DNA from: a virus
Length of the DNA stretch: 64,000 nt
IMG/VR virus record: IMGVR_UViG_3300046786_000121
Coordinates: 31,829 to 95,828 of that record
Strand: one strand, 5' to 3'
Position 1 is the first letter of the stretch; each line of letters starts with the position of its first letter. A program made the position numbers and the translations under genes. This document shows positions 51,953 through 64,000 of this stretch, piece by piece. The notes beneath the pieces are model-generated. The model searched no databases. It was not told where the DNA came from and saw only the letters and a program-made list of their open reading frames with translations.

Positions 51953-52188
51953 AGTAGTTCTAGTAGAATTTCTAGTATAACAGGATCGTAGGGAATGGGA
52001 GTGTACATGTTATTATATAGTGGATTATAGTAGTCTATAGAGAATTATAGTCTGCCCAAATGGGTCCTGCAGGGTAAAAAACTAGAGCGCTAAAAAATTT
52101 GGGTAGTAACTTTATCTTCTCAGGGTGGTGATTTGCTACCACTGTGGCGTTTTTACAACACTGCACACGCATATACCGGCCGGGGTTC

Positions 52189-52218
52189 ATTATAGCACCA
52201 CCACCTCCTGATGGTCAA
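52189..52218 (-). promoter_or_regulatory. Early promoter cassette 1
   Basis: ttggTTGACC-18-TATAAT; no ORF directly downstream. Confidence 0.6.
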
Positions 52219-52222
52219 CCAA

Positions 52223-52423
52223 TCAGCACCTCAGACTTCGATTCCCTCTCTCACTTTCTCTAAGATGGCTCCCACAGAGTCGATATGCGGCATCATCCCA
52301 CGCTGGAATCACGTCCGTCAACTGCCTGTGCTGTTTAGGATCCCAGGGCGCATCCCTGTAGTCCCGTACAGCGCAGCCTGTAAGACTAGCGCATAGCGCA
52401 AGCAATAGCACGATCCGTAGCAT
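52223..52423 (-). CDS. Small lipoprotein
   Basis: Lipobox LTGC; SD AGGAG. Confidence 0.75.
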   Translation of the reverse strand: MLRIVLLLALCASLTGCAVRDYRDAPWDPKQHRQLTDVIPAWDDAAYRLCGSHLRESERGNRSLRC

Positions 52424-52619
52424 CTGCGTAGTCTCCTAAGCCCTGTTCTTGTTCTATAGTATCCCACATCATTAGCTTGATTAGGCTACTGGCATCTACC
52501 CTATCCTGATGTGTGGGCATTGCCATAATCGTATCCTTAAGCTCGTCTTCATCACGGCAGGTCCAAAGGATCTCGGCAATGGCTATCTGCCTAGGGCTTA
52601 GTTTCTCAATGTGAATCAT
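52386..52619 (-). CDS. Hypothetical early protein
   Basis: Start re-called to MIHIEKL. Confidence 0.7.
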   Translation of the reverse strand: MIHIEKLSPRQIAIAEILWTCRDEDELKDTIMAMPTHQDRVDASSLIKLMMWDTIEQEQGLGDYADATDRAIACAMR

Positions 52620-52803
52620 AGTAGTCCAGTTCACTGTTACGGTTACCCAAGTAACCTGCATACATTGCAAGGAGCCCTAGGACTGCGACTACTGTAGAAC
52701 TAATCATTTGCTCGGTGGTTTCACTGTGCTCAATGCCACCTACGCCCCCAAAGACTAAGAGGAATCCTGCTAGGCTTACGATTGCGGCTGCTGTCTTGTT
52801 CAT
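52606..52803 (-). CDS. Small 2-TM membrane protein
   Basis: SD AAGGAG; two hydrophobic segments. Confidence 0.75.
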   Translation of the reverse strand: MNKTAAAIVSLAGFLLVFGGVGGIEHSETTEQMISSTVVAVLGLLAMYAGYLGNRNSELDYYDSH

Positions 52804-52826
52804 AGTATGCTCCTTTGTATGTCTAG

Positions 52827-52856
52827 ATTATAACAGGGGTTTTGGGCCCCTGTCAA
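52827..52856 (-). promoter_or_regulatory. Early promoter cassette 2
   Basis: TTGACA-18-TATAAT; ACAGGGG/CCCCTGT inverted repeat. Confidence 0.85.
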
Positions 52857-52859
52857 CCA

Positions 52860-53306
52860 TTATTTTACTTGTTGAAGACTCGCCACTTTGATAGTGAATA
52901 CTTCGTTGTCTGTGTCCCCGCGGAACTCTGATGCAAGGCAGTCCAGTTCTGCTTCGGCTTTCGTGATTTGAATGCCGTTGCGTGTGTATTCTACTTGAGG
53001 AACAAAGTCGTTGCGAACACGGGTGCAACGATAGTAGTATTCACCTTTGTGCTCGATGATGTGTGGATAGTCGAACCATTCGCCCCATGGCAGGCCCTGG
53101 TTCTGTGCTGGCAATTCGCCTGATGCTCGCTTGTCCTTAACCGCTTGGATGTTGTCGTATTCTACGCCTACACGGGCTTGGAATGTTGACAGCTTCATGA
53201 TTGGTTCTTTGTTTTTACGAACCTTCATTGGGCGGAGTGTTGTGAGCGTTGCGATAGTGCCGCGGCGCTTGTTTAGCAATTGCAGGATTTCGTTTGTTTG
53301 AATCAT
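52860..53306 (-). CDS. Hypothetical early protein
   Basis: SD AAGGAG; LPWGEW..YP.IIEHKGEYY. Confidence 0.85.
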   Translation of the reverse strand: MIQTNEILQLLNKRRGTIATLTTLRPMKVRKNKEPIMKLSTFQARVGVEYDNIQAVKDKRASGELPAQNQGLPWGEWFDYPHIIEHKGEYYYRCTRVRNDFVPQVEYTRNGIQITKAEAELDCLASEFRGDTDNEVFTIKVASLQQVK

Positions 53307-53335
53307 CTTAGCTCCTTTTGTGTGTGTATGTGTAA

Positions 53336-53364
53336 ATTATACAACCAAAATGTCTAGCTGTCAA
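53336..53364 (-). promoter_or_regulatory. Early promoter cassette 3
   Basis: TTGACA-17-TATAAT. Confidence 0.9.
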
Positions 53365-53471
53365 CCAAAAATCATAGTTCCTACCGCCGCGATCCATATC
53401 AGCAGAGCCTGGGCGATACCGTAGTGGAAGAGGAACCAAAACAGGGCGATCCATCCAATCAGTCTAATCAT
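53361..53471 (-). CDS. 36-aa hydrophobic peptide (not in ORF track)
   Basis: MIRLIGWIALFWFLFHYGIAQALLIWIAAVGTMIFG; own promoter and SD AAGGAG. Confidence 0.7.
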   Translation of the reverse strand: MIRLIGWIALFWFLFHYGIAQALLIWIAAVGTMIFG

Positions 53472-53498
53472 AGCCAACTCCTTTGTGTTGATGACTAG

Positions 53499-53527
53499 AG
53501 TATACTGTCACCTAGCCAAAATGTCAA
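53499..53527 (-). promoter_or_regulatory. Early promoter cassette 4
   Basis: TTGACA-17-TATACT. Confidence 0.88.
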
Positions 53528-53708
53528 CCAATCTTTGATTTAATTGATCCATCTCACTGGCTTCGACGTAGAAGTCTGTGGTGGGATCCCAGTAGCTGCC
53601 TTCCCGGGGATCGTAGTAGAGAACTCTATCGATGAACCAGAACGGCCCCTCGAGTCCATCACGGGGGAGCCACTTAGGATCCCGTGTGCCTAGAACCTTG
53701 AATCCCAT
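53508..53708 (-). CDS. Hypothetical early protein
   Basis: GLEGPF...VLYYDP.EG.YWDP.TDFY; TAATG coupling. Confidence 0.8.
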   Translation of the reverse strand: MGFKVLGTRDPKWLPRDGLEGPFWFIDRVLYYDPREGSYWDPTTDFYVEASEMDQLNQRLVDILAR

Positions 53709-53830
53709 TATCGGCTTTCGCGGACTGATTCGAGGATCTTAGCCTGCTTCTTCGCGATGTAGAAGCTGAATCCGAAACGGAAGACACGGACGAAGTGCAG
53801 TCCGCCTACCTTTTTGTATGTTAGAATCAT
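53708..53830 (-). CDS. 40-aa basic peptide (not in ORF track)
   Basis: MILTYKKVGGLHFVRVFRFGFSFYIAKK...; own promoter and SD. Confidence 0.7.
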   Translation of the reverse strand: MILTYKKVGGLHFVRVFRFGFSFYIAKKQAKILESVRESR

Positions 53831-53861
53831 CTTGGGCTCCTATTGCGTTGTTGATGTGTAG

Positions 53862-53890
53862 ATTATACCATCACTTGTCCAAAATGTCAA
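53862..53890 (-). promoter_or_regulatory. Early promoter cassette 5
   Basis: TTGACA-17-TATAAT; 32 bp identical to cassette 6. Confidence 0.9.
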
Positions 53891-53897
53891 CCATTTT

Positions 53898-54410
53898 TTA
53901 AAACTTTCCGCCTGGGCGAACAATGGCTGCACGATTGCCACATCGGCTACCGTCTTTAGCAGTCTGCCAGGTATAGTCGCAGGTTCCTAATGCCCCAGAT
54001 GCTGGGAATGCTCTAACCAAGGCTGCGAGAAGGATGCCTGTGCCTACTACCTTAACAACCGTTCCCCATCCTGTGTCCCAGAAACTGATTTCCGGTTCTT
54101 CCCTCGAAGGTTTCTGTGGGATTGACTTAGGAGTAATCCTTTCCTGAAACTCTGCTACTGTTTCGCTCTGCAGGATACAGTTGCTGCCATCTGTTGCATA
54201 GCTGGCAAAGTACCCCACATACCCGTCCTTGATAAACACATCCTTACCCTCGCTGGATCTGCGTTCCCAACCATTCTTCTCTCCATCGATGTAGAGTTGT
54301 TGATAGGCTTTGACGCAGGCTTCAGGCGAATTAAGCGGGAATCGTTCTACGGCAGCTTGACAGGTAGTTGCTAGGATTGCTAGGATTAGGAATGTTGCTA
54401 TAGAGCGCAT
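53898..54410 (-). CDS. Exported/membrane protein with Cys-containing C-terminal motif
   Basis: Signal peptide, TM segment, CDY.WQ.AKDGSRCG.RAA..RPGG. Confidence 0.75.
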   Translation of the reverse strand: MRSIATFLILAILATTCQAAVERFPLNSPEACVKAYQQLYIDGEKNGWERRSSEGKDVFIKDGYVGYFASYATDGSNCILQSETVAEFQERITPKSIPQKPSREEPEISFWDTGWGTVVKVVGTGILLAALVRAFPASGALGTCDYTWQTAKDGSRCGNRAAIVRPGGKF

Positions 54411-54436
54411 TGTATTCTCCTTCTTACAATGACTCT

Positions 54437-54465
54437 ATTATACCATCACTTGTCCAAAATGTCAA
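54437..54465 (-). promoter_or_regulatory. Early promoter cassette 6
   Basis: TTGACA-17-TATAAT, inside the 3' end of the upstream ORF. Confidence 0.9.
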
Positions 54466-54862
54466 CCAATTCCTTGCTGGATAATCCATTCGCCTTGGCC
54501 ATAGCCTTGATCTGCTCGGCTACTCTCTCACGGCGAGTTTCTTCATCACGGCGGGCCTTCTCGGCTTTGGCCAATGCTGCTTTCTTCTCTCGTTCGATCT
54601 TGGCTTCTTGGGCAAGGCGCTGCTTCTCTAAGCGTTCCTCGTATTCCTTGTCGGTTTCCAAGCGTTTGACAACCGCGACTGCCTCACCATAGGAATCCAT
54701 CTTGACAGTGATCCTGCCTCCGTGTAGAATCTCTTGTTCGGTGAAGTTTAGCCGAAAGTCTTCGAGTGCTTTGGCTGCTTCTCGGATTTCCTTGCCGTGA
54801 AATAGCTTTCTCAGAGGGATCCTCTTAGATTTCAGCTCAACGGTTTTGCGGGGCGCTGTCAT
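54446..54862 (-). CDS. Coiled-coil hypothetical protein
   Basis: 138 aa, charged helical C-terminal half. Confidence 0.75.
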   Translation of the reverse strand: MTAPRKTVELKSKRIPLRKLFHGKEIREAAKALEDFRLNFTEQEILHGGRITVKMDSYGEAVAVVKRLETDKEYEERLEKQRLAQEAKIEREKKAALAKAEKARRDEETRRERVAEQIKAMAKANGLSSKELVDILDK

Positions 54863-55142
54863 TGCTTTCTTTCAGTTGCTGACGAAGTTCCTGTGCTTGT
54901 CCCATAGCGTTGAATGCCTTATCTTGTGCATCCATGGTATAGAGGATCGCTGCCAAGCCTACGGTGCTCATGACGAGGTTGGTGATAATCAAGGGCCAAT
55001 CACGGACGCGAATCGCCACGAACAACCACATGAAACCTCCCACGACTAGGATCGAGGGGCCTTCAGGATAGTATCCTAAGCCGTTCACTCCAGTCCCCAC
55101 GATGAGGACCAGGGTGGCTAACCATTTAACGAATTCAGTCAA
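54837..55142 (-). CDS. 3-TM membrane protein
   Basis: Hydrophobic segments; ATGA-type overlap. Confidence 0.7.
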   Translation of the reverse strand: MTEFVKWLATLVLIVGTGVNGLGYYPEGPSILVVGGFMWLFVAIRVRDWPLIITNLVMSTVGLAAILYTMDAQDKAFNAMGQAQELRQQLKESNDSAPQNR

Positions 55143-55333
55143 ATCATCTCTCCTTCGCCGGAAGTCATGCAGTCTAGATCGTAATTTGCCTCTAGGATAT
55201 CTACTTCAAAGGTGTTAAGCTCAAAGGCTACGGATGTGTCGTAAACAGCATCAGGGAACTCACAGCCTGCTGCTACAAGTCCTTTGAGGTGTGCAAGTGC
55301 TTCTGTGAAGCGTGTGCGTTTTTGCTTTGCCAT
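55139..55333 (-). CDS. Hypothetical early protein
   Basis: Start re-called to MAKQKR after SD. Confidence 0.75.
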   Translation of the reverse strand: MAKQKRTRFTEALAHLKGLVAAGCEFPDAVYDTSVAFELNTFEVDILEANYDLDCMTSGEGEMI

Positions 55334-55361
55334 GTCCTGCTCCTTGTGTGTGTATGTGTAA

Positions 55362-55390
55362 ATTATACGACAGGATAGCCAAAATGTCAA
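55362..55390 (-). promoter_or_regulatory. Early promoter cassette 7
   Basis: TTGACA-17-TATAAT. Confidence 0.9.
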
Positions 55391-55393
55391 CCA

Positions 55394-55825
55394 TTATTTT
55401 GCCTGAGTGATCTCGCCCTGCTCATTGACGTTGAAGCTGCCGCCGATGAGTTCTGCCCCGTCGCCTTCTTCGATGACGAGCCTGATGCCTACCAGCTTCT
55501 CTCCCAGGCGCTTGATTAAGGATTCTTTGGAGTCTCCTTGGCCCAGGAACTGATCGTCTTCCTTGCGGAAAGCGTAAAGGACCTCGCCGTGCTTCTCAAT
55601 CTTGATAGGCACGATTTCGTAACCGTTCTCGTCACGCTCTGTGTCTGCTGCTGCTTCTGGATCGAGATCGTCTTTCCAATGGTTAATGAACTTGTCCAGT
55701 TCTTTGTTAGTGATGCCGGCTTTACGGAACATCTCTGCCATGGTGTAAAACATAATCTTCTCCTGCACCTTCCAGCCGAGCCAGAATGCAGCCACAAAGA
55801 CGAGAACGAGTTCGATGATATCCAT
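55394..55825 (-). CDS. N-anchored membrane protein
   Basis: N-terminal TM segment; TAATG coupling. Confidence 0.8.
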   Translation of the reverse strand: MDIIELVLVFVAAFWLGWKVQEKIMFYTMAEMFRKAGITNKELDKFINHWKDDLDPEAAADTERDENGYEIVPIKIEKHGEVLYAFRKEDDQFLGQGDSKESLIKRLGEKLVGIRLVIEEGDGAELIGGSFNVNEQGEITQAK

Positions 55826-56151
55826 TAGGCTTTCCTTGGGTGATAAAGAGCGGCTGCTTCCTTGCGAAGTGCTCCTGCTTTCTTGTATAATTCGTCTGCG
55901 GTATTCGACAGCGCGGCGCTACGGGCTTCTGTTAGCTTACTACCGCCGAACTCACGATCTATGTAGTACTGGATCAAGTTGTTCTTGATAAGGCTAACGA
56001 GATCGCCACCTTGATCATCTGGACAGATAAACCTGACGGGACACTTGCCCCAACTCTTATCGGATACGAACTCTGCGTAATACCGTCTATGATCCTTGTT
56101 GTGTGGATCAAAGGCTACTAAGGGCCTTGCAAGATATTCTAGTTTGCTCAT
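55825..56151 (-). CDS. Hypothetical early protein
   Basis: RP.VAFDP.NKDHR..Y..F.....WG.CPVRF. Confidence 0.8.
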   Translation of the reverse strand: MSKLEYLARPLVAFDPHNKDHRRYYAEFVSDKSWGKCPVRFICPDDQGGDLVSLIKNNLIQYYIDREFGGSKLTEARSAALSNTADELYKKAGALRKEAAALYHPRKA

Positions 56152-56177
56152 GTCTTTATTTAATAGTTAGATAATGT

Positions 56178-56206
56178 ATTATACTACCAAATGCTCGTCA
56201 AGTCAA
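56178..56206 (-). promoter_or_regulatory. Early promoter cassette 8
   Basis: TTGACT-17-TATAAT, abutting a terminator U-tract. Confidence 0.85.
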
Positions 56207-56208
56207 TC

Positions 56209-56245
56209 AAAAAAGGGCCCTCCGTGCATCAAAACAGGGAGGGCC
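56209..56245 (-). terminator. Intrinsic terminator
   Basis: GGCCCTCC/GGAGGGCC stem plus U6. Confidence 0.8.
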
Positions 56246-56259
56246 AAATGTTACCGCTA

Positions 56260-56275
56260 CCGGGAGCGAATCGGT
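56260..56275 (-). repeat. 16-nt 3'-UTR hairpin element, copy 1
   Basis: ACCGATTCGCTCCCGG, identical at 63742-63757. Confidence 0.9.
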
Positions 56276-56277
56276 TG

Positions 56278-56586
56278 TTACGCGGTAACAGCTTCTGCCG
56301 TCACGGCAGTAGTCTCAGGGGCCTTAGCAGCGGGGCCTGCGTTCTTTTTCGCCACATAGGCGATAGCAGCCAGGACCGCTGGGTTACCTGCACCATAACC
56401 AGTGGCGGTCAAGTGTGCGGCAATCTCAGCCTTAGTCATCTCATGCGGCAATGGAATCAAGTCCACGTCCGTATGTCCGTTCTTCGACAGGATCTTGATA
56501 CGCATGGTATCATTCGCGAAACGGATCTTAGTCTTACCATCAAGTGTAGAAACACCTGCAACTGCGAACTTCTTATCTGTAGCCAT
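56278..56586 (-). CDS. Hypothetical early protein
   Basis: SD GAGG, own promoter and terminator. Confidence 0.85.
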   Translation of the reverse strand: MATDKKFAVAGVSTLDGKTKIRFANDTMRIKILSKNGHTDVDLIPLPHEMTKAEIAAHLTATGYGAGNPAVLAAIAYVAKKNAGPAAKAPETTAVTAEAVTA

Positions 56587-56643
56587 TTAAATTACCTCTT
56601 CTGTATGTGTGTTAATCAATACCAAACCATTTGGTACAATTTT

Positions 56644-56672
56644 AATATAGCATCTCTGCTACCCTATGTCAA
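56644..56672 (-). promoter_or_regulatory. Early promoter cassette 9
   Basis: TTGACA-17-TATATT. Confidence 0.8.
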
Positions 56673-56676
56673 CCAA

Positions 56677-56856
56677 TTATTTTACCAAATTAGTCTGGAT
56701 CGTAACTGATTGTTTCTCGTCCAGGGCGGCGATGAATTCGTCGTCATAGACAAGATCCTGCATGGTGAGATCGATCATCGATTCCACCTTATCCATATCG
56801 GGAGTGCCCTCCCCGGCACACTCCACGGTGAATGTAAACTTATACTGGCGTGCCAT
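56677..56856 (-). CDS. Hypothetical early protein
   Basis: Start re-called to MARQYK after SD GGAGG. Confidence 0.7.
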   Translation of the reverse strand: MARQYKFTFTVECAGEGTPDMDKVESMIDLTMQDLVYDDEFIAALDEKQSVTIQTNLVK

Positions 56857-57457
56857 TCTTCGCCTCCACGCCGTCCTTAATCCACAAGGTGAGTTCTTCT
56901 TCGTTCTCACGCTCGTATTCTTCTAAGGTTGCCACGATATCGAATTCTTCGTCGAGTTCCTTTGGCAGGTCCACTTGTGCTTGCTTGCTACCGTTTGTGG
57001 TGTCGTAGCAGTCGTCCGAGCCATCCTCGTAGATACCTGCATACTCACAGCCTTCGCCCATATACAAGCAACGGACTTCGTAACCTTGGCTAACCATTGT
57101 GTCAAATGCGGCAATGGGTGGGCTCCACGCTGTTTGACAGTGCAGGACAATGGTGTTATCATCCATCCGCGTGTAACCTACTTCACAGAGATCCCACTTG
57201 GTGCCCCAATGCGTAATGTTCCAATCATACCAGCTGGAGAAGCCGTATTTGGCTACCATAGCCGCTTTCTTCTTCTCGCGAGCAGCCTGCTCTGGACCGT
57301 GTCCCCAAGTCGTTAAATCATCATCGACAAGTTCTTGGGGGCAAGGAATGATCGTCTGCAGAACCCCGACGTTGTTGTCGTGCGTTGCTTCAATTGCGTC
57401 GATCAAGGCTTTGTCAGCGTGTTTGATCGTGATGTTATTTGTGGTCCAATTAGGCAT
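56840..57457 (-). CDS. YubB/DUF1281 ferredoxin-like family protein
   Basis: MPNW..N.I.I, WYDWN..HWGTKWD, TAWSPP. Confidence 0.8.
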   Translation of the reverse strand: MPNWTTNNITIKHADKALIDAIEATHDNNVGVLQTIIPCPQELVDDDLTTWGHGPEQAAREKKKAAMVAKYGFSSWYDWNITHWGTKWDLCEVGYTRMDDNTIVLHCQTAWSPPIAAFDTMVSQGYEVRCLYMGEGCEYAGIYEDGSDDCYDTTNGSKQAQVDLPKELDEEFDIVATLEEYERENEEELTLWIKDGVEAKNGTPV

Positions 57458-57466
57458 CTCGGTTCC

Positions 57467-57649
57467 TTAGTTCAGTGAATCAATCATCTTGTTGAAAGTC
57501 TCGTCACCCCACTTGCGGCCCTGATAAGAGCAGATACCGCCAATGCGTTCCAGAGTGTTAATCTTCTCTGCATCAGTTGCATCGCTACGCATGATCTCTG
57601 CGGCTCTCTCTAACTGTTGCGCGACTGTGAGTTGTTGATCCTGTGTCAA
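57467..57649 (-). CDS. Hypothetical early protein
   Basis: TTG start with SD AAGGAG and own promoter. Confidence 0.7.
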   Translation of the reverse strand: MTQDQQLTVAQQLERAAEIMRSDATDAEKINTLERIGGICSYQGRKWGDETFNKMIDSLN

Positions 57650-57677
57650 TTGACTCTCCTTGTTAATCTATGCGTTA

Positions 57678-57706
57678 AGTATACAGCCAAAACGCATAGA
57701 TGTCAA
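57678..57706 (-). promoter_or_regulatory. Early promoter cassette 10
   Basis: TTGACA-17-TATACT; 11-bp inverted repeat around the -10. Confidence 0.88.
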
Positions 57707-57711
57707 CCAAA

Positions 57712-58038
57712 TTATGCCCCTTGATACAATTCGGCAGCGTTTACTGCGTATCCCATCAAGGCATCCTGTACAAGCTCGACGGCTTTGTAGCTTGTGCCAC
57801 CAATGTGCCATTCGCATTTGTGCAGGGGTGTGCTATACTGCTTCCAGTCGTAGATCGTTGCTACTGTGCCGTCTTCGCCTACGAGAATCCACTCTTGCGT
57901 AGTCTTATCGCCGCCACCTAAGCTGTCGCCGAACGTGGCAACCAGTGTTGCGAAGTCAGTTGTGATATAGCCTTGCAGGTGTGTGCCGTTGATCGAGTCG
58001 AAGTTGTCCTGGACTGTGTAAGTTGCATTGCGTGACAT
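57712..58038 (-). CDS. Hypothetical early protein
   Basis: GT.LQGYI...GDK...EW...ATIYDWK...WHIGG; start re-called. Confidence 0.8.
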   Translation of the reverse strand: MSRNATYTVQDNFDSINGTHLQGYITTDFATLVATFGDSLGGGDKTTQEWILVGEDGTVATIYDWKQYSTPLHKCEWHIGGTSYKAVELVQDALMGYAVNAAELYQGA

Positions 58039-58068
58039 GTCAGCTCCTATTGCGTTGTTGATGTATAG

Positions 58069-58097
58069 ATTATACAACCAAAATGCGTTGCTGTCAA
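58069..58097 (-). promoter_or_regulatory. Early promoter cassette 11
   Basis: TTGACA-17-TATAAT. Confidence 0.9.
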
Positions 58098-58504
58098 CCC
58101 AAAATGTAGGGTTTATTCCAGCGTCCCACGTTCACGTCAATGTAGTAAGCGGTATCGAAGTAGTCTGTCATCGCATCGCTGCGATCGTACCACTCATTGC
58201 CTTTTGCTGCTGCGAAGAGTTCAGTGAGGAACGCCTTGCAGTCGCCGGTGAAGTGCTCGTGGAACCAATAGGGGTTCACATCAATGGAATCCTTGGCAAT
58301 ATGAAGACGACGATCGCCTACAGGATCACGAGCCAGCGTTTCAGCATTGTAGTTGCCGATGAAGTCCAGCTTTCCCTGCTTGATGTTGATCATCAATGTG
58401 CTGTGATGATGAACTGCTAGGCTTGCTTTGACACCGTACTTTGTGCAGACTGCTTTGATTGCGGGTGCCAGCTTTGCCTTACGCTCTTGACTCATGTATG
58501 CCAT
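58094..58504 (-). CDS. Hypothetical early protein
   Basis: SD GGAG; D.SDAMTDYF..AYY.DVN.GRW.KPY. Confidence 0.85.
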   Translation of the reverse strand: MAYMSQERKAKLAPAIKAVCTKYGVKASLAVHHHSTLMINIKQGKLDFIGNYNAETLARDPVGDRRLHIAKDSIDVNPYWFHEHFTGDCKAFLTELFAAAKGNEWYDRSDAMTDYFDTAYYIDVNVGRWNKPYILG

Positions 58505-58535
58505 AGTTCGCTCCTATTGCGTTGTTGATGTGTAG

Positions 58536-58564
58536 ATTATACAACCAAAATCGTCAGTTGTCAA
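58536..58564 (-). promoter_or_regulatory. Early promoter cassette 12
   Basis: TTGACA-17-TATAAT. Confidence 0.9.
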
Positions 58565-58800
58565 GCCATTTCTTTGTAGACTTTGTAGCCCCTAGTCTGC
58601 AGAGTGTAGATTGCCTTGCGAATCTCAGAGGCTTTTGTGTCCTCCCAGTCCAGCATCTCCTTGGCAGCTTTGATAGTGTCATCATCACTGAACTCGCCGA
58701 AGTAGTAATGCTGATATCGATAGAACTTCTTCCCGTCCTCGTCCTTGAGCATCTGAATGGTGCCAATGCCCTTGTAGTCTACAATCTCGTTGAGTTTCAT
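58561..58800 (-). CDS. Hypothetical early protein
   Basis: SD AGGAG. Confidence 0.75.
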   Translation of the reverse strand: MKLNEIVDYKGIGTIQMLKDEDGKKFYRYQHYYFGEFSDDDTIKAAKEMLDWEDTKASEIRKAIYTLQTRGYKVYKEMA

Positions 58801-58801
58801 G

Positions 58802-58987
58802 TTATGCTCCTACGGGTGCGAACATCTTACGTCCCTCACGCATGAACGTGCGGATTGCGGCAGCTTCACGATTGTCCAGCTCATCGTTGTCCAGCTGTTC
58901 CTTCATGACAATAACCATGTCCAGCAGGCTCATACCGTATACGGCTCGCTTGTCTTCGATGATCTTGATTGCTTGCTTGATGTCCAC
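58802..58987 (-). CDS. Hypothetical early protein
   Basis: GTG start after SD AAGGAG. Confidence 0.7.
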   Translation of the reverse strand: MDIKQAIKIIEDKRAVYGMSLLDMVIVMKEQLDNDELDNREAAAIRTFMREGRKMFAPVGA

Positions 58988-59016
58988 GTCACGCTCCTTT
59001 GTGTTAGTATGACTCA

Positions 59017-59045
59017 ATTGTAATACCAAAAGGGGCTGTTGTCAA
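59017..59045 (-). promoter_or_regulatory. Early promoter cassette 13
   Basis: TTGACA-17-TACAAT; AAAGGGG/CCCCTTT around the -35. Confidence 0.85.
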
Positions 59046-59057
59046 CCCCTTTCAGAA

Positions 59058-59399
59058 TTACTTGCGTGTCACACGATAGATCGTTCCCTGCGCTGTAACT
59101 ACCTTCTCAGCACCTGCTGCCGCGAACATCTGTTCAATGTTGCTTGCTTCGCGTGTTAAACGATCTGCCGCTGTGGGCTTGTCGATCTTAACAGTGTAAA
59201 ACTTATCCCGGTAAGTGAGATAGACTTTGCTACGCATGAATGCCGAGCGTGTCAGTTCATGCAGTGCGTCTGCTTGCTGTTGTTGTGCTGTTGTGTAAAG
59301 TTGCTTCGATACAATGCTGCGGCGCTGTGCGTCCAAATACGCTGCCTGCTTGCTGTATTGTGTCTTAGCCGCTTGTGTGTCTAAATCTTTGCTTTGCAT
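59058..59399 (-). CDS. Hypothetical early protein
   Basis: SD GGAG; extended -10 TGTTATACT at 59439-59447. Confidence 0.75.
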   Translation of the reverse strand: MQSKDLDTQAAKTQYSKQAAYLDAQRRSIVSKQLYTTAQQQQADALHELTRSAFMRSKVYLTYRDKFYTVKIDKPTAADRLTREASNIEQMFAAAGAEKVVTAQGTIYRVTRK

Positions 59400-59489
59400 A
59401 TTGCGCTCCATTTAGTCCCTGCCTATTGCAGTGTCTCTAGTATAACACCATTTCGCAAAACTTTACCGAAAAATTAAAAAATATTTTGG

Positions 59490-59518
59490 TTGACATTTTG
59501 GACAGATGACCTTATAAT
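59490..59518 (+). promoter_or_regulatory. Inverted copy of the early promoter cassette
   Basis: ttggTTGACAttttggaca...TATAATagagtcat, 17-bp spacer. Confidence 0.88.
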
Positions 59519-59524
59519 AGAGTC

Positions 59525-59620
59525 ATAGGTTCGAAGGCTATCCCCGGGGTGGACGTCGAGGGCCACCGTGTGTGTCTCACGGTGCTGAAGGCAAAAAAAG
59601 GGCCCCGAAGGGCCCTAAAC
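59525..59620 (+). ncRNA. Candidate structured small RNA
   Basis: Strong promoter, no SD-led ORF, several GC-rich hairpins. Confidence 0.45.
59593..59616 (-). terminator. Intrinsic terminator
   Basis: AGGGCCC-TTCG-GGGCCCT plus U-tract on the minus strand. Confidence 0.9.
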
Positions 59621-59638
59621 CAACCACCAGGAGAAACC

Positions 59639-59815
59639 TTAGCTGTTCACAGTCTCGAACGGACTGAGCTCTTCGCTGTCCGCCACGCCCATGTCTTCGA
59701 GTGCGGCAAGCACTGTCTCGATGCTACACTCTAAGAGTGTTGCAATCATCTTAGCACTGTGGCCCTCGATGTAGAGTTCTTGAATGTCATACGACAGGTC
59801 TTTAATTGCGCTCAT
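59639..59815 (-). CDS. 58-aa HTH-like protein (not in ORF track)
   Basis: MSAIKDLSYDIQELYIEGHSAKMIATLLECSIETV...; SD AAGGA; ATGA coupling. Confidence 0.75.
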   Translation of the reverse strand: MSAIKDLSYDIQELYIEGHSAKMIATLLECSIETVLAALEDMGVADSEELSPFETVNS

Positions 59816-60042
59816 ACTGTTTCCTTTGATTTGACAAATATTACTAGATCATCTTGTGATACACGCTCATCGACACTCCACTCATCATCGTAGTAATCGA
59901 TCCATTGACGAAGTGCGGGTTCGTCATTATCGACTTCTCCGTTAAAGCCGAGCTCTAGAGCCTCTTCTTCTGTATCAGCCTCTACCCAGTATGATTCCTG
60001 GATAAGGCTGGTACGGCTCAATAAGAACTTATACTTCTTCAC
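59812..60042 (-). CDS. Hypothetical early protein
   Basis: VEADTEEEA motif; GTGA coupling. Confidence 0.7.
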   Translation of the reverse strand: MKKYKFLLSRTSLIQESYWVEADTEEEALELGFNGEVDNDEPALRQWIDYYDDEWSVDERVSQDDLVIFVKSKETV

Positions 60043-60167
60043 TTGGCAAGTTCGGTGCTCTGAGTCTTGACAGTATCAACGCCCTTGTCTAACATACGAG
60101 CGATGCCACTGAAGCCTACTGTTGCCAATACTAGTCCAAAGACTGTGCCTGCGATGAATGCTTTCAT
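60039..60167 (-). CDS. 42-aa membrane peptide (not in ORF track)
   Basis: MKAFIAGTVFGLVLATVGFSGIARMLDKGV...; SD AGGAG. Confidence 0.75.
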   Translation of the reverse strand: MKAFIAGTVFGLVLATVGFSGIARMLDKGVDTVKTQSTELAK

Positions 60168-60301
60168 GATTGCTCCTGTGAAGACTTCTTAGAGAACTTC
60201 CACTTGATGAACTGGAAGGCTGTTTGAACAAGACCTATGCGCCAAGCCCACATAAGATCCATAACTACCATACCAACTACGAATGCTACGATGATTTCCA
60301 T
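60164..60301 (-). CDS. Small membrane peptide
   Basis: Start re-called to MEIIVAF after SD AAGGAG. Confidence 0.7.
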   Translation of the reverse strand: MEIIVAFVVGMVVMDLMWAWRIGLVQTAFQFIKWKFSKKSSQEQS

Positions 60302-60329
60302 ATCAGCTCCTTTGTGTGTGTATGCGTGT

Positions 60330-60358
60330 ATTATATGCTCATTACGTGCGCTTGTCAA
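60330..60358 (-). promoter_or_regulatory. Early promoter cassette 14
   Basis: TTGACA-17-TATAAT. Confidence 0.9.
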
Positions 60359-60395
60359 GCACATTAGCAGCGGGGCCTACAGCCCCATGCCCTTT

Positions 60396-61607
60396 TTAGC
60401 CTGCGTCTTTCTCGTAGATAACAGTCTGTCCAAAGGGTGCTTCTGCGTCTGTGTTGCCTTTGACAATGAAGATAGTATCTACTTGATCCTCAGGACCCCA
60501 ACTGCCGCAAGGGTAGCCGTCTGTGAACATAATGAACTTCTTAGCCTCAATGCCTTCGTCAAGCATGAACTGGAAGTTAATATCAAAGTCAGTGCCGCCA
60601 CCGCCTTGAGGTTCGTAGTCCAAGAGGTCCAAACTGTTGTCTTGAGTAATCTTGACATAGTTGTAGATCTGTGTATCAAAGCACCACAGGTGAATACTGA
60701 AGTCCTCGTACTGGTCCATGATACCTTTAACTTCGCTGAGGAAGGTAGAAGCATCTTCTGTGCCAATACTGCCCGACATATCAACTGCAATAGCCACGTC
60801 AATAGTAGTATCCTGACGCATACCTGGGAGGATTGCGCCGCTGTGCATACTCTTACGATTAGGGCGAGTGAAGCTGTAATCGTTGCGGATAATGCTTTGG
60901 ATCTCTTGACGGATCAACTGGCGCCAGCTAATCTTAGGCTCAGTCATGTCCTTGATCAAACGCTGGATACCTGCGGGCACTTTACCTGCGCCAGCGGCAC
61001 TTGCACTCTGCACCATTGCTTCTTTGATCTCATCACGGATGCGTTGTGCGTCTTCCTTAGAGATAGTAGGGCGTCCGCCTTTGCCTTTCTCGCCTTCTTC
61101 ACCTTCACCGCCTGGGCTGTTGCCGTCCTCGTTGATGTGTTCGTCCAGCAAGTCGCCGAGCTGTTGCAAGAGTTGAGGCATACTGATCTTCTCTGCTTTA
61201 TCGTAGAGCTCGTCGTAGATCTCTTCCCATGCCATGCCACGATACTTGTTATCCTGGCAAATCTTTACTTCAGTAATCTTGTCGCCGATGCGCTCGTCTA
61301 CAAGGATCTGATTGACAGCAAAGTCCTGCGCGATGTTACTCAGTTGACGATCGCGGCTACCAACACGCCCAAAGTGATCAAACACGCAGTGGCAGATCTC
61401 GTGTCCGAACAAGAACTCCAGCTTCTTAATGCTGAGCTTTTGCACGAACTTGGTGTTGTAATAGAAGTCGCGTCCGTTAGTAGCGGCAGTAGGACACCAG
61501 TCGTCTGCTTCGATAAGACGCATACGAGTTGCCATGTTGCCAAAGAAAGGCGCTTTGAGTAGCAAGCCTACTCGGGCTGTGGTTAGTTTCTCGACGATTG
61601 GATCCAT
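60396..61607 (-). CDS. DUF2201-type metallopeptidase-like + VWA domain protein
   Basis: TAATNG, HEICH (HExxH), VDMSGS MIDAS, GGGGTDF, FTDGY. Confidence 0.92.
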   Translation of the reverse strand: MDPIVEKLTTARVGLLLKAPFFGNMATRMRLIEADDWCPTAATNGRDFYYNTKFVQKLSIKKLEFLFGHEICHCVFDHFGRVGSRDRQLSNIAQDFAVNQILVDERIGDKITEVKICQDNKYRGMAWEEIYDELYDKAEKISMPQLLQQLGDLLDEHINEDGNSPGGEGEEGEKGKGGRPTISKEDAQRIRDEIKEAMVQSASAAGAGKVPAGIQRLIKDMTEPKISWRQLIRQEIQSIIRNDYSFTRPNRKSMHSGAILPGMRQDTTIDVAIAVDMSGSIGTEDASTFLSEVKGIMDQYEDFSIHLWCFDTQIYNYVKITQDNSLDLLDYEPQGGGGTDFDINFQFMLDEGIEAKKFIMFTDGYPCGSWGPEDQVDTIFIVKGNTDAEAPFGQTVIYEKDAG

Positions 61608-61639
61608 GTTTCGCTTCCTAGTGTTGTCTGTATGTATAT

Positions 61640-61668
61640 ATTATACAATCAGACGTTGCCTCTGTCAA
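61640..61668 (-). promoter_or_regulatory. Early promoter cassette 15
   Basis: TTGACA-17-TATAAT, abutting a terminator. Confidence 0.9.
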
Positions 61669-61670
61669 CC

Positions 61671-61707
61671 AAAAAAGGAGGGAGAGTGAACCTAAATCCA
61701 CTCTCCC
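61671..61707 (-). terminator. Intrinsic terminator
   Basis: GGGAGAGTG/CACTCTCCC stem plus U6. Confidence 0.8.
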
Positions 61708-61716
61708 CTGCAATGG

Positions 61717-62822
61717 GCGAGGTCTTAATTCTCCATTGCAGAAAGCACATACTTACCAAAACGCTTGTGGAATTCGTCGAATGACTTCATCTTAGTAGCG
61801 TCGAAGGGCAAGTTATAGTTAGTCAAGCCAGTCTTGGCACCCATCACAACCAGCTCGGTTGGGAAGTTGTCCATCATGTAACGGAAGAAGCAGTCTGCCA
61901 TTTCGTCAAACTTCTTGTTCTTCTTCTCTGCTTGATCCTTGAGCTCGTAGCACAATGACACGGTCAAGGAATACATCGCTGAGACTTCCTTAATCTGCAA
62001 GTCTTTAACCTTGCCTTCAAGGATGTCAATTGCCTTAGGCAAACGACCTGCAATCTTGCGGTGAGCCATAAACTTAACAGCCAAGCCATCGCCAACAGCA
62101 CCAGCAACCAAGTTGTGGAGAGTGTCAATGTCAGTGTCGTCGTCTTTGAGCAAGTCGCTCACGAACACCCAAGAACGAGGAGTTGCGAATGCCTTGCTAG
62201 GACTCTTTGGATCAAAGTCATACAAGTCCTGCTTGGCAAAGCCCACATAACCAAGAACCTCAGGGTGGATTGCGTTCATAACAGCCCACTCTTGGAAGTC
62301 GTCAAAGTCAACCTTGGCTTCCAAGTGAATGAAGCGGTTAGCCAACGGAGCAGGCATACGGTATGTCACGCCACGATCGCCTTCACGGTTACCAGCGGCA
62401 ACCACGTCAACACCCTTAGGCAGTTCGTAGGTACCAACACGGCGGTTCAGGATCAACTGATATGCCGCGGCTTGCACAGCTGGAGGAGCGGAGTTAAGCT
62501 CGTCCAAGAAGATGATTGCTGTGGACTCAGGGTCTGTAGGCAGTTCAGCTGGGGGAGCCCAAACCATTGCGCCTTTGTCTGAGTTGTAATAAGGGATACC
62601 TTTGATGTCAGTAGGTTCCCACAATGCCAGACGCACGTCAACGACTTCGCGACCTGCATCTTCGCCAATTTGCTTGACGATATCGGATTTACCAATGCCT
62701 GGAGGACCCCACAGGAACACTGGACGGCGGGTGCCGATTGCTTTACGAATAGAACGCTTCGCGGCTTTTGGACCAACTTGGCGGACGGACATATCTGAAG
62801 ATTTTGCCATTTAAGACCTCGC
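61717..62822. repeat. Perfect 12-bp inverted repeat bracketing the MoxR gene
   Basis: GCGAGGTCTTAA at 61717-61728 and TTAAGACCTCGC at 62811-62822. Confidence 0.92.
61725..62810 (-). CDS. MoxR-family AAA+ ATPase
   Basis: WGPPGIGKS, IFLDELN, AAGNR, PLANRF, TPRSW. Confidence 0.93.
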   Translation of the reverse strand: MAKSSDMSVRQVGPKAAKRSIRKAIGTRRPVFLWGPPGIGKSDIVKQIGEDAGREVVDVRLALWEPTDIKGIPYYNSDKGAMVWAPPAELPTDPESTAIIFLDELNSAPPAVQAAAYQLILNRRVGTYELPKGVDVVAAGNREGDRGVTYRMPAPLANRFIHLEAKVDFDDFQEWAVMNAIHPEVLGYVGFAKQDLYDFDPKSPSKAFATPRSWVFVSDLLKDDDTDIDTLHNLVAGAVGDGLAVKFMAHRKIAGRLPKAIDILEGKVKDLQIKEVSAMYSLTVSLCYELKDQAEKKNKKFDEMADCFFRYMMDNFPTELVVMGAKTGLTNYNLPFDATKMKSFDEFHKRFGKYVLSAMEN

Positions 62823-62862
62823 TTTAAGAAAATTAAAAGTTACTGTGTTTCTCAGTGTCTAA

Positions 62863-62891
62863 AGTATAGCACCGAAGTGCCGTCCTGTCAA
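62863..62891 (-). promoter_or_regulatory. Early promoter cassette 16
   Basis: TTGACA-17-TATACT; GCAC-TTCG-GTGC in the spacer. Confidence 0.88.
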
Positions 62892-63640
62892 CCGGTTTTC
62901 TTCACATAATTCAACTGAGTAGTCTTGTCATCGCGTTGGGCTTTGATCTTAGCCTTGATGCGATGCTCTGAGTCCTTAGACAAGTCTGAGGGGAACCAGA
63001 AGTCAACAAACGATTCTCCCATGCGGGCCTGAATGCGATACTTATTGTATTCTTTGTTGAATCGTGTAGTGACAACAGTAATGTCGCCTACTATAGTGTC
63101 CCCTACATTCCCGGCGAGCTGTACGCTGCTGTAGACTTCACGCTTGACTTCTTGATTAACACGATCACGACGTGCGATGCTAGGGAGGCAACTGATGATT
63201 GCGAACTCCAGCATATTGCGTCCGGTGAACTGCTCGATGCAGGAAATCTTGTATGCCTGGGACTGGAACTCGTTGAGTCCGCCAGCGATAGCTTTCATTG
63301 TGTAGCTTGTGAAGTGTCTGCGATACTCTTCGCCTGCTTGACGATCTTCCTCAGTGACGAGGCTGAAGTCGTTCTTCTGTAGGCATTCGCGAACGATACG
63401 CTTGTTAGCACGTTTCGAGATCTCGGAAGTGTCTTGTCCTGTAACGATCCACTGATCCTCTTTGAGGTAGCCGCCATTGATACGATCAACTGCTGCTGCT
63501 AAGGCCCAGACATCTGCTGCTTGGAACACTGACGGGACTCTGACTTGAGTCATACGTGGCTCTTCGTAGTCGTCATCCTCGTGACCCAGACGCTGGATAT
63601 CACGTCTGCTCCATCCACTTACATCTACGAATCCTGGCAT
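62888..63640 (-). CDS. Hypothetical protein with OB-fold-like C-terminus
   Basis: SD AAGGAG; G.VGD.I...I.V...IKAKIK......T.LNYVK. Confidence 0.75.
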   Translation of the reverse strand: MPGFVDVSGWSRRDIQRLGHEDDDYEEPRMTQVRVPSVFQAADVWALAAAVDRINGGYLKEDQWIVTGQDTSEISKRANKRIVRECLQKNDFSLVTEEDRQAGEEYRRHFTSYTMKAIAGGLNEFQSQAYKISCIEQFTGRNMLEFAIISCLPSIARRDRVNQEVKREVYSSVQLAGNVGDTIVGDITVVTTRFNKEYNKYRIQARMGESFVDFWFPSDLSKDSEHRIKAKIKAQRDDKTTQLNYVKKTG

Positions 63641-63670
63641 ATCTCGCTCCTTGTTTTAAACAATAGCTCT

Positions 63671-63699
63671 ATTATATAGTCTAACTTAGAGTCTGTCAA
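63671..63699 (-). promoter_or_regulatory. Early promoter cassette 17
   Basis: TTGACA-17-TATAAT, abutting a terminator. Confidence 0.9.
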
Positions 63700-63701
63700 C
63701 C

Positions 63702-63728
63702 AAAAAGAAAGGACTCCTAAGAGTCCTT
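63702..63728 (-). terminator. Intrinsic terminator
   Basis: AAGGACTC-TTAG-GAGTCCTT plus U-rich tract. Confidence 0.85.
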
Positions 63729-63741
63729 CCTCAAACCCGCC

Positions 63742-63757
63742 CCGGGAGCGAATCGGT
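63742..63757 (-). repeat. 16-nt 3'-UTR hairpin element, copy 2
   Basis: ACCGATTCGCTCCCGG, identical at 56260-56275. Confidence 0.9.
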
Positions 63758-63774
63758 ATAGGTTTGAAAGCTAA

Positions 63775-64000
63775 TTACAGAGCTGAGCTGTGCATACCCA
63801 AAGCGCGAGCCTTGTAGCCAAGAGCTACGATCTCACGTGATGGCTTGCCAATCTCGTAAGTTGTAACCATAACGCCATTGCCTGCCTTGTGACGTTTAGC
63901 GTAGACAGCATAACCACTGTGACGAATGCGAGTAGCTTCGGCACGGATGTTCTTTACACCAAAGCGATGATTCGCTTCGGCTGCTGTCAATGTCTCGCCG
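63775..64000 (-). CDS. Winged-helix DNA-binding protein, 5'-truncated
   Basis: GETLTAAEA..RFGVKNIRA....IR.SGY.VY; frame open to the window edge. Confidence 0.7.
   Translation of the reverse strand, partial: GETLTAAEANHRFGVKNIRAEATRIRHSGYAVYAKRHKAGNGVMVTTYEIGKPSREIVALGYKARALGMHSSAL

Follow-up and report, generated by a model that had tools for sequence, protein, structure and literature searches.

Can the end of a phage messenger RNA (mRNA) influence how often its own start, or that of another gene, is read by ribosomes? The question is raised by the early region of a 64,000-nucleotide (nt) stretch of DNA, here called the window, which covers bases 31829-95828 of the 95.8-kb IMG/VR record IMGVR_UViG_3300046786_000121. 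The record is a fragment of an uncultured jumbo phage (completeness ~27% according to CheckV), with near-complete metagenomic relatives of 353 and 364 kb. A first-pass annotation of the sequence had reported that four early terminators on the minus strand are each preceded by a tract complementary to the Shine-Dalgarno (SD) sequence, and had proposed a genome-encoded "end-locks-start" layer of translational control. We find all four tracts where they were placed, each flanked by a stop codon and a U-tract terminator, and they are not of one kind: two are copies of one 15-mer hairpin, one is a gene-specific complement of the gene's own ribosome-binding site (RBS), and the last is a separate tract at 59629. 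In three of the four, an early gene ends in a conserved RNA hairpin whose loop mirrors RBSs. Probably, these hairpins end three transcription units of the early region and expose single-stranded loops that pair with RBSs, in cis for the gene of an ATPase (type A) and in trans for the duplicated hairpin (type B). The layer is not genome-wide, as only three such elements per genome were found.

The pattern itself is real and goes beyond chance, as two enrichments indicate. Using motif-blind terminator calls in this fragment and two complete relatives, CTCC or CCTC occurs in the spacer between stop codon and hairpin at 5/5 terminators with a consensus promoter behind them, against 2/30 others (Fisher p=6e-5); one of these two belongs to the tract at 59629, whose terminator has no promoter after it. 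The late terminators that had been cited as free of the element (12915, 17305 and 21171) do lack it, their spacers being A/T-rich with no CTCC or CCTC. The second enrichment concerns the AGCGA motif that had been noticed in early RBSs, which is present in the RBS windows of 4/17 promoter-proximal genes of this fragment and of 0/95 others.

The two ends of the ATPase mRNA

The idea that an end locks a start is well supported, in cis, for the gene of a MoxR-like AAA ATPase (Table 1). The predicted hairpin at its 3' end has an 8-bp stem, in which the last codons (GCA-AUG-G) pair with CCAUUGC, and a 16-nt loop that holds both the stop codon and an anti-RBS sequence. This sequence, UUAAGACCUCGC, is the exact 12-nt complement of GCGAGGUCUUAA, the SD and spacer of the same gene. 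When the RBS of each of 110 genes was compared with the 3' window of the same gene, the ATPase pair was the sole outlier (12 nt, the runner-up having 7). Both complete relatives, G001 and G002, yield the orthologous pair (9 nt), though in G002 a few unrelated genes match or exceed it (9-13 nt). The duplex between the anti-RBS and its own RBS has a predicted energy of -20.6 kcal/mol, which is matched by 1% of shuffled elements, and in the predicted 1185-nt ATPase transcript this 5'-3' duplex is part of the minimum-free-energy fold, with a pair probability of at least 0.97 for 11 of its 12 pairs.

The comparison of homologues, made on the best 80 of ~600 relatives, carries the case further. Every relative with at least 77% amino-acid (aa) identity keeps the two sites complementary, and they have changed jointly, giving pairs such as GGAGGUCUUAA/UUAAGACCUCC, ACGAGG.../...CCUCGU, AGAGGUUA/UAACCUCU, ACUGGAG/CUCCAGU, GGGGUCUUA/UAAGACCCC and GGGGGUUU/AAACCCCC. 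Even the identity of the stop codon is mirrored before the AUG, with TAA, TAG and TGA stops matched by TTA, CTA and TCA. The longest complement averages 9.75 nt over 44 unique pairs (4.2 with shuffled 3' windows), and these 44 loci hold 21 distinct duplex strings. When partners were permuted among loci, the observed sum of 429 was reached by 0/20000 permutations (356 +/- 7). The hairpin stem also co-varies, at the wobble position of an Ala codon, the third before the stop (gcN-atgg / ccat-N'-gc). Distant homologues, at 70-74% identity, have plain terminators with no 5'-3' pairing, and in phage PA5oct, the best cultured relative of the ATPase, cis pairing is absent (4 nt only).

Based on these data, the ATPase mRNA would be translatable while it is nascent; once the full-length transcript is made and neither end carries a ribosome, the 5' and 3' ends would pair and occlude the RBS, and this closure would limit the protein output per transcript. 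The closest precedent is the icaR mRNA of Staphylococcus aureus, whose 3' end carries an anti-SD motif; by pairing with the SD region of that mRNA, the motif blocks formation of the initiation complex and creates a substrate for ribonuclease (RNase) III (PMC3868564). The ATPase element resembles it in being complementary, over 12 perfect nt, to the SD region of its own mRNA, and the selection for pairing expected of an icaR-type element is seen in the duplex variants and the permutations given above. It differs in several respects. The 3' untranslated region (UTR) of icaR is long (>100 nt), whereas that of the ATPase gene measures about 55 nt and its motif overlaps the stop codon; furthermore, unlike in icaR, the element is carried by a phage, lies within the loop of a small hairpin, spans the whole spacer and co-varies across many relatives. 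The likeness is therefore one of mechanism by analogy, not of homology, and for the ATPase the pairing is a thermodynamic prediction, from which an initiation block or RNase III cleavage may follow.

The same closure could have the opposite sign. Pairing of the ATPase ends, and possibly the loop-RBS contacts described below, might act positively, by protecting the ends from RNases or by allowing terminating ribosomes to re-initiate; with the stop codon inside the pairing, a terminating ribosome adjoins the RBS. The hbs mRNA of Bacillus subtilis is instructive, as its 5'/3' UTR pairing (about 14 bp) modulates access of RNase Y to the leader and stabilises the mRNA (PMC5737220). The ATPase pairing likewise joins two ends of one mRNA, which makes a stabilising role possible. 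The hbs pairing, however, overlaps the RNase Y site in the 5' UTR, leaves the SD uncovered and is not described as an initiation block, whereas the ATPase duplex extends from the SD through the entire spacer as far as the AUG and would be expected to occlude 30S binding, as in icaR (PMC3868564). We consider a positive role unlikely on these grounds, and by analogy with icaR the effect of closing the ATPase mRNA would be repression.

A conserved loop hairpin and the ribosome-binding sites that it mirrors

The two TTCGCTCC tracts belong to an identical 15-mer, CCGAUUCGCUCCCGG, which occurs twice in the window. It folds into a 3-bp stem with a 9-nt loop and is nested in an outer stem of unrelated sequence, after which comes the terminator. 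Copy 1 lies in the 3' UTR of a gene whose end is at 63775, and a type B hairpin follows 4/5 close homologues of this gene. In copy 2 the outer stem is built from the last 8 coding nt of a 102-aa gene (56278-56586) and downstream sequence, with the stop codon in an internal loop. An exact 16-mer was found in 90 IMG/VR stretches, mostly between a stop codon and a terminator followed by a TTGACA promoter. In a sample chosen by protein alone, and so unbiased with respect to the hairpin, homologues of the 102-aa gene gave 40 unique 3' flanks, and in 38 of these the hairpin stands right after the stop codon. The loop core UCGCU is invariant and UCGCUC is present in all flanks except one; around it the inner stem takes the forms CCG/CGG, CGG/CCG, UGG/CCA, CAG/CUG and UCG/CGA. 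Across the alignment 85% of cells are paired, against 29-47% with slid partners, double changes occur at 9/10 pairs, and the observed score was reached by 0/500 shuffles; for these pair counts the outer stem was specified by hand, as RNAalifold on a MAFFT alignment gave only the 3-bp inner stem. A covariance model (CM) finds two copies per complete genome, after the same two gene families as in the window.

In several relatives (L003, L020, L025, L067, L072 and L089), two or three type B hairpins stand in tandem behind one ~100-aa gene, with identical loops on unrelated stems (CCUAGG/CCUAGG, ACCG/CGGG and GUAG/CGAAAG-type).

The reverse complement of the loop, GGAGCGAA(U), is a recurrent RBS, and the conserved loop part UUCGCUCC is the exact complement of the conserved part of this tag, GGAGCGAA. 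RBSs tagged with GAGCGA are concentrated at promoter-proximal genes in both complete relatives (13/43 vs 11/402 others, p=1e-8; 10/42 vs 7/413, p=2e-7) and, in smaller numbers, in this fragment (2/16 vs 0/94, p=0.02). In the 364-kb relative, 14/18 occurrences of GGAGCGAA fall within RBS windows. The tag is retained in orthologues of the 250-aa and von Willebrand factor A (VWA) genes at 47-82% protein identity; for the 250-aa gene alone it persists at 47-50% aa identity, and orthologues of the DUF2201 VWA gene have the RBS GGAGAGCGA(A/C). The two genes that carry the hairpins have weak, untagged SDs in all three genomes. Since the TTCGCTCC elements are complementary to the RBSs of other genes and not to their own, they would act in trans or on read-through transcripts. 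In cofolding, contact between loop and RBS is favoured by -4.5 to -10.7 kcal/mol; a read-through pairing in cis between hairpin 1 and the next RBS is absent from the minimum-free-energy fold.

Some relatives (G002:280435-282486, which is L168; L029, L047 and L053) have a gene of 666-683 aa whose SD lies in a hairpin, ACCG-GGAGCGAA(A)U-CGGU, followed by the AUG. This RBS hairpin mirrors the type B hairpin over 16-17 nt and is for this reason a candidate kissing-loop partner. The gene is not in the 95.8-kb fragment.

For the loop family, locking of a start by an end is plausible in trans, as judged from these sequence patterns. Two early mRNAs, whose own RBSs are untagged, carry the AUUCGCUCC loop hairpin before their terminators; the 3' end made of hairpin and terminator would find its partners in trans, in promoter-proximal early genes with GGAGCGAA-tagged RBSs, and this pairing would dampen or shut off their translation. 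For this reading the complete relatives provide the support, that inside the window being weak.

The hairpin could instead be a signal for a protein or for processing, such as the operator of an RNA-binding protein, an RNase site, a 3' stabiliser or an aid to termination, its complementarity to the tag being incidental. The whole 15-mer, stem included, is nearly invariant, as expected of a protein site, and the hairpin always lies directly upstream of a terminator; no co-variation of loop and tag was found, and the loop has no excess of RBS binding energy in this window. Such a signal would leave without explanation the exact complementarity of the conserved loop part and the conserved tag part, the restriction of the tag to promoter-proximal RBSs and the RBS hairpins that, in some relatives, mirror the full 16-17 nt. 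The adjacent 102-aa protein lends no support to an autoregulatory RNA-binding protein, since no RNA-binding fold was found in it: searches of Pfam, PHROGs, PDB sequences and the ESM Atlas gave nothing, Foldseek matched nothing at E<=0.001 to its AlphaFold2 model (mean predicted local distance difference test score, pLDDT, 80), and no homologue was present in any cultured phage searched. We judge a protein or processing signal to be improbable but, in the case of protein binding, still a serious rival, and keep pairing of the loop with tagged RBSs as the preferred reading of type B.

Evidence against the pairing model and comparison with known systems

Several observations weigh against pairing in cis and in trans as set out above. 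On the type B side, the inner stem has only 3 bp and is mostly invariant; the duplex energies of the TTCGCTCC loop with RBSs of this window are no better than those of shuffled loops; and the tag is on only 2-4 RBSs in the window. The tags do not follow the variable loop position (AUU vs ACU), GAGCGAG being found in 1/19 tags of ACU-loop loci; the distant ATPase relatives L251-L270, examined for a lineage in which tag and loop had changed together, have plain terminators only; and the tag could be kept for another reason. On the ATPase side, the direction of the effect (repression, or else stabilisation or ribosome recycling) is not readable from sequence. In addition, a near-identity search of a phage collection gave no match and no cultured close relative, and the element at 59629 is unsupported as part of a control system.

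That element, GGTTTCTCCT, lies at 59638-59629 directly after a TAA. Its UCUCCU is complementary in a generic way to the commonest SD, RBSs of late genes are predicted as its best partners, and among 20 unique relatives similar tracts are limited to the two closest, L271 and L272. Here the first-pass claim is not supported, given the shallow conservation and generic complementarity.

The individual parts are of kinds already known, namely 5'-3' anti-SD pairing, small RNAs (sRNAs) with anti-SD loops, such as Cuckoo (PMC4615179), and sRNAs derived from 3' UTRs. The Cuckoo or CcsR (alpha-r14) sRNAs of Alphaproteobacteria consist of 2-4 adjacent hairpins with the loop CCUCCUCCC (PMC4615179). Type B hairpins share with them highly variable, co-varying stems around one fixed, C/U-rich, anti-SD-like loop, and the tandem arrangement in some relatives. 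They fall outside that family, having the loop AUUCGCUCC and a single hairpin per site in this window, and residing in the 3' UTRs of phage mRNAs, whereas Cuckoo is a free-standing sRNA gene. Unlike the generic SD target of Cuckoo, the target matched by the type B loop is a private extension of the RBS. The alpha-r14 covariance model of Rfam gave no match at the gathering threshold or at E<=5, and no Rfam family matched type B at either of these levels.

A second comparison is with CpxQ, DapZ, SroC and MicL, base-pairing sRNAs that bacteria derive from 3' UTRs. As in these, the conserved seed of type B lies directly upstream of the intrinsic terminator of the parental mRNA, which could double as the 3' end of an sRNA; unlike in these, the putative targets are the phage's own early genes. 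In phage T4, too, the RBSs of early transcripts are sequestered (gene e, soc), and promoter/stem-loop (PeSL) cassettes, which do not feature anti-RBS loops or their co-variation, are present. Candidate likenesses of the window to T4 are an early region of repeated promoter-terminator modules and control of translation by RNA structure that hides the RBS. The sequestering strand of T4 directly precedes the RBS and the effect depends on the promoter used, whereas here the pairing partner is located at the distant 3' end or in a different mRNA.

A literature search found no phage example of 5'-3' pairing that hides an RBS, or of the type B loop family. Very few bacterial mRNAs are documented to conceal an RBS by intramolecular 5'-3' pairing, and the natural co-variation of the ATPase pair, down to the identity of the stop codon, is unusually clean, which makes it a ready-made test case for the interplay of mRNA closure, coupled transcription-translation and termination. 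The type B family suggests that phages can assign to a class of genes a private RBS tag that is addressed by RNA; if true, this would be a compact shut-off with no need for a protein. We infer that the early elements would offset the strong promoters by repressing translation, and that in vivo pairing of the ATPase ends and the loop family would together form an RNA-only brake on early protein synthesis. A bolder version, which we regard as tentative and rather doubtful, is that a clade of ~350-kb phages runs an RNA-only translational programme, in which the essential-looking ATPase mRNA, translated mainly during transcription, would lock itself by its stop region, while two phage-made sRNAs from 3' ends would read GGAGCGAA as an "address tag" and switch off the immediate-early genes together. 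Being short and portable, both the type A and the type B parts lend themselves to reporter assays.

Layout of the early region

The features discussed are collected in Table 1. Genes were called by codon usage, greedy calling of the longest open reading frame having given a wrong 102-aa gene.

Table 1. Elements, genes and signals of the early region (window coordinates)
Feature	Position	Strand	Remarks
Type B hairpin, copy 1	63731..63767	minus	outer 8-bp stem; inner CCG/CGG stem 63742-63756; loop AUUCGCUCC
Tract TTCGCTCC	63751-63744 and 56269-56262	minus	
Terminator after type B copy 1	63702..63730	minus	then promoter 63699-63671
Tagged RBS GGAGCGAG of 250-aa gene 62888-63640	63643..63650	minus	7 Watson-Crick pairs and one G-U with loop
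ATPase RBS and spacer GCGAGGUCUUAA	62811..62822	minus	abuts AUG; partner of 61717-61728
MoxR-like AAA ATPase gene	61725-62810	minus	49% identical to ATPase of Pseudomonas jumbo phage PA5oct
Type A hairpin, 3' end of ATPase gene	61709..61740	minus	predicted fold
Anti-RBS UUAAGACCUCGC	61717..61728	minus	stop UAA (61725-61727) inside
Tract TAAGACCTCGC	61727-61717	minus	
Intrinsic terminator of ATPase gene	61671..61708	minus	13-bp hairpin and U tract
Promoter TTGACA-17-TATAAT after ATPase terminator	61668-61640	minus	
RBS GGAAGCGAAAC of DUF2201 VWA/metallopeptidase gene 60396-61607	61608..61618	minus	partial tag AGCGAA
Tract GGUUUCUCCU after 58-aa gene	59629..59638	minus	generic complement of common AGGAGA SD
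Tagged RBS GGAGCGAA of 136-aa gene 58094-58504	58507..58514	minus	8-nt complement of type B loop
Type B hairpin, copy 2	56250..56289	minus	inner hairpin 56259-56275, loop AUUCGCUCC; CM score 74.6 bits
Terminator after type B copy 2	56209..56245	minus	then promoter 56206-56178

On the minus strand, ~52000-64000 is a chain of units in which a consensus TTGACA-17-TATAAT promoter and a short leader precede a single small gene or a few of them, and only four of these units end in a U-tract terminator. In several units the -35 box of the following one contains the stop codon of the preceding gene. Three such cases are a TGA inside the next TTGACA, at 62886-62891, 58559-58564 and 58092-58097, and these units consequently have no terminator or spacer at all. 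Three near-identical copies of a leader (...ctacacatcaacaacgcaataGGAG...) stand downstream of consensus promoters, at 58505-58536, at 58039-58069 and after the promoter at 53890-53862. The 4 nt that follow GGAG differ among them (CGAA, CTGA and CCCA), and the difference falls precisely at the tag.

A layout of this kind also invites an explanation at the level of DNA, in which the elements would be duplicated promoter/terminator cassettes like the PeSL of T4, inverted repeats left behind by recombination or sites for a DNA-binding regulator. The region does string together terminator-promoter junctions and near-identical 5' UTR copies, which is where a likeness to PeSL would lie, and the type B motif is found in both orientations. 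In the ATPase gene, however, compensatory changes preserve complementarity, not identity, over 1.1 kb; in type B the loop stays constant while the stems co-vary; each orientation keeps to one place relative to the gene, anti-sense copies after stops and sense copies before starts; and the UTR cassettes differ precisely at the tag. A role in DNA is very unlikely in view of these points. Least credible of all is chance, by which C/U-rich spacers before G+C-rich terminators would merely resemble anti-SD sequences: this reading holds for the tract at 59629, with its generic AGGAGA complementarity, and shuffled C-rich loops do bind SDs equally well, but it leaves the co-variation, the deep conservation and the early/late contrast unexplained and is already refuted for the other three tracts by conservation and co-variation. 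RNA hairpins whose loops pair with RBSs remain the preferred explanation for those three.

A gap of 239 nt without genes (59400-59638) contains, on the plus strand at 59490-59518, a promoter that matches the consensus perfectly (12/12) and is directed antisense into a four-gene operon of the minus strand. The fold of the transcript expected for a small RNA in this gap is not significant (z=-1.3), and a tRNA scan found none, the gap included.

The MoxR-like ATPase and the DUF2201 protein (60396-62810, minus strand) are a conserved early gene pair, each with a separate promoter. The DUF2201 protein combines a metallopeptidase-like N domain with a VWA-like domain; the PHROGs label "HNH endonuclease" for its gene finds no support in Pfam. 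Finally, a 12-mer, GCCCCGCTGCTA, occurs twice on the minus strand of the window (56325-56336 and 60365-60376; 0.08 expected), once within the 102-aa coding sequence and once between the stop of the VWA gene and the next promoter. In two relatives (L093 and L115) the same motif sits between terminator and promoter, and it could serve as a site for a regulator or as an upstream element of the promoter.

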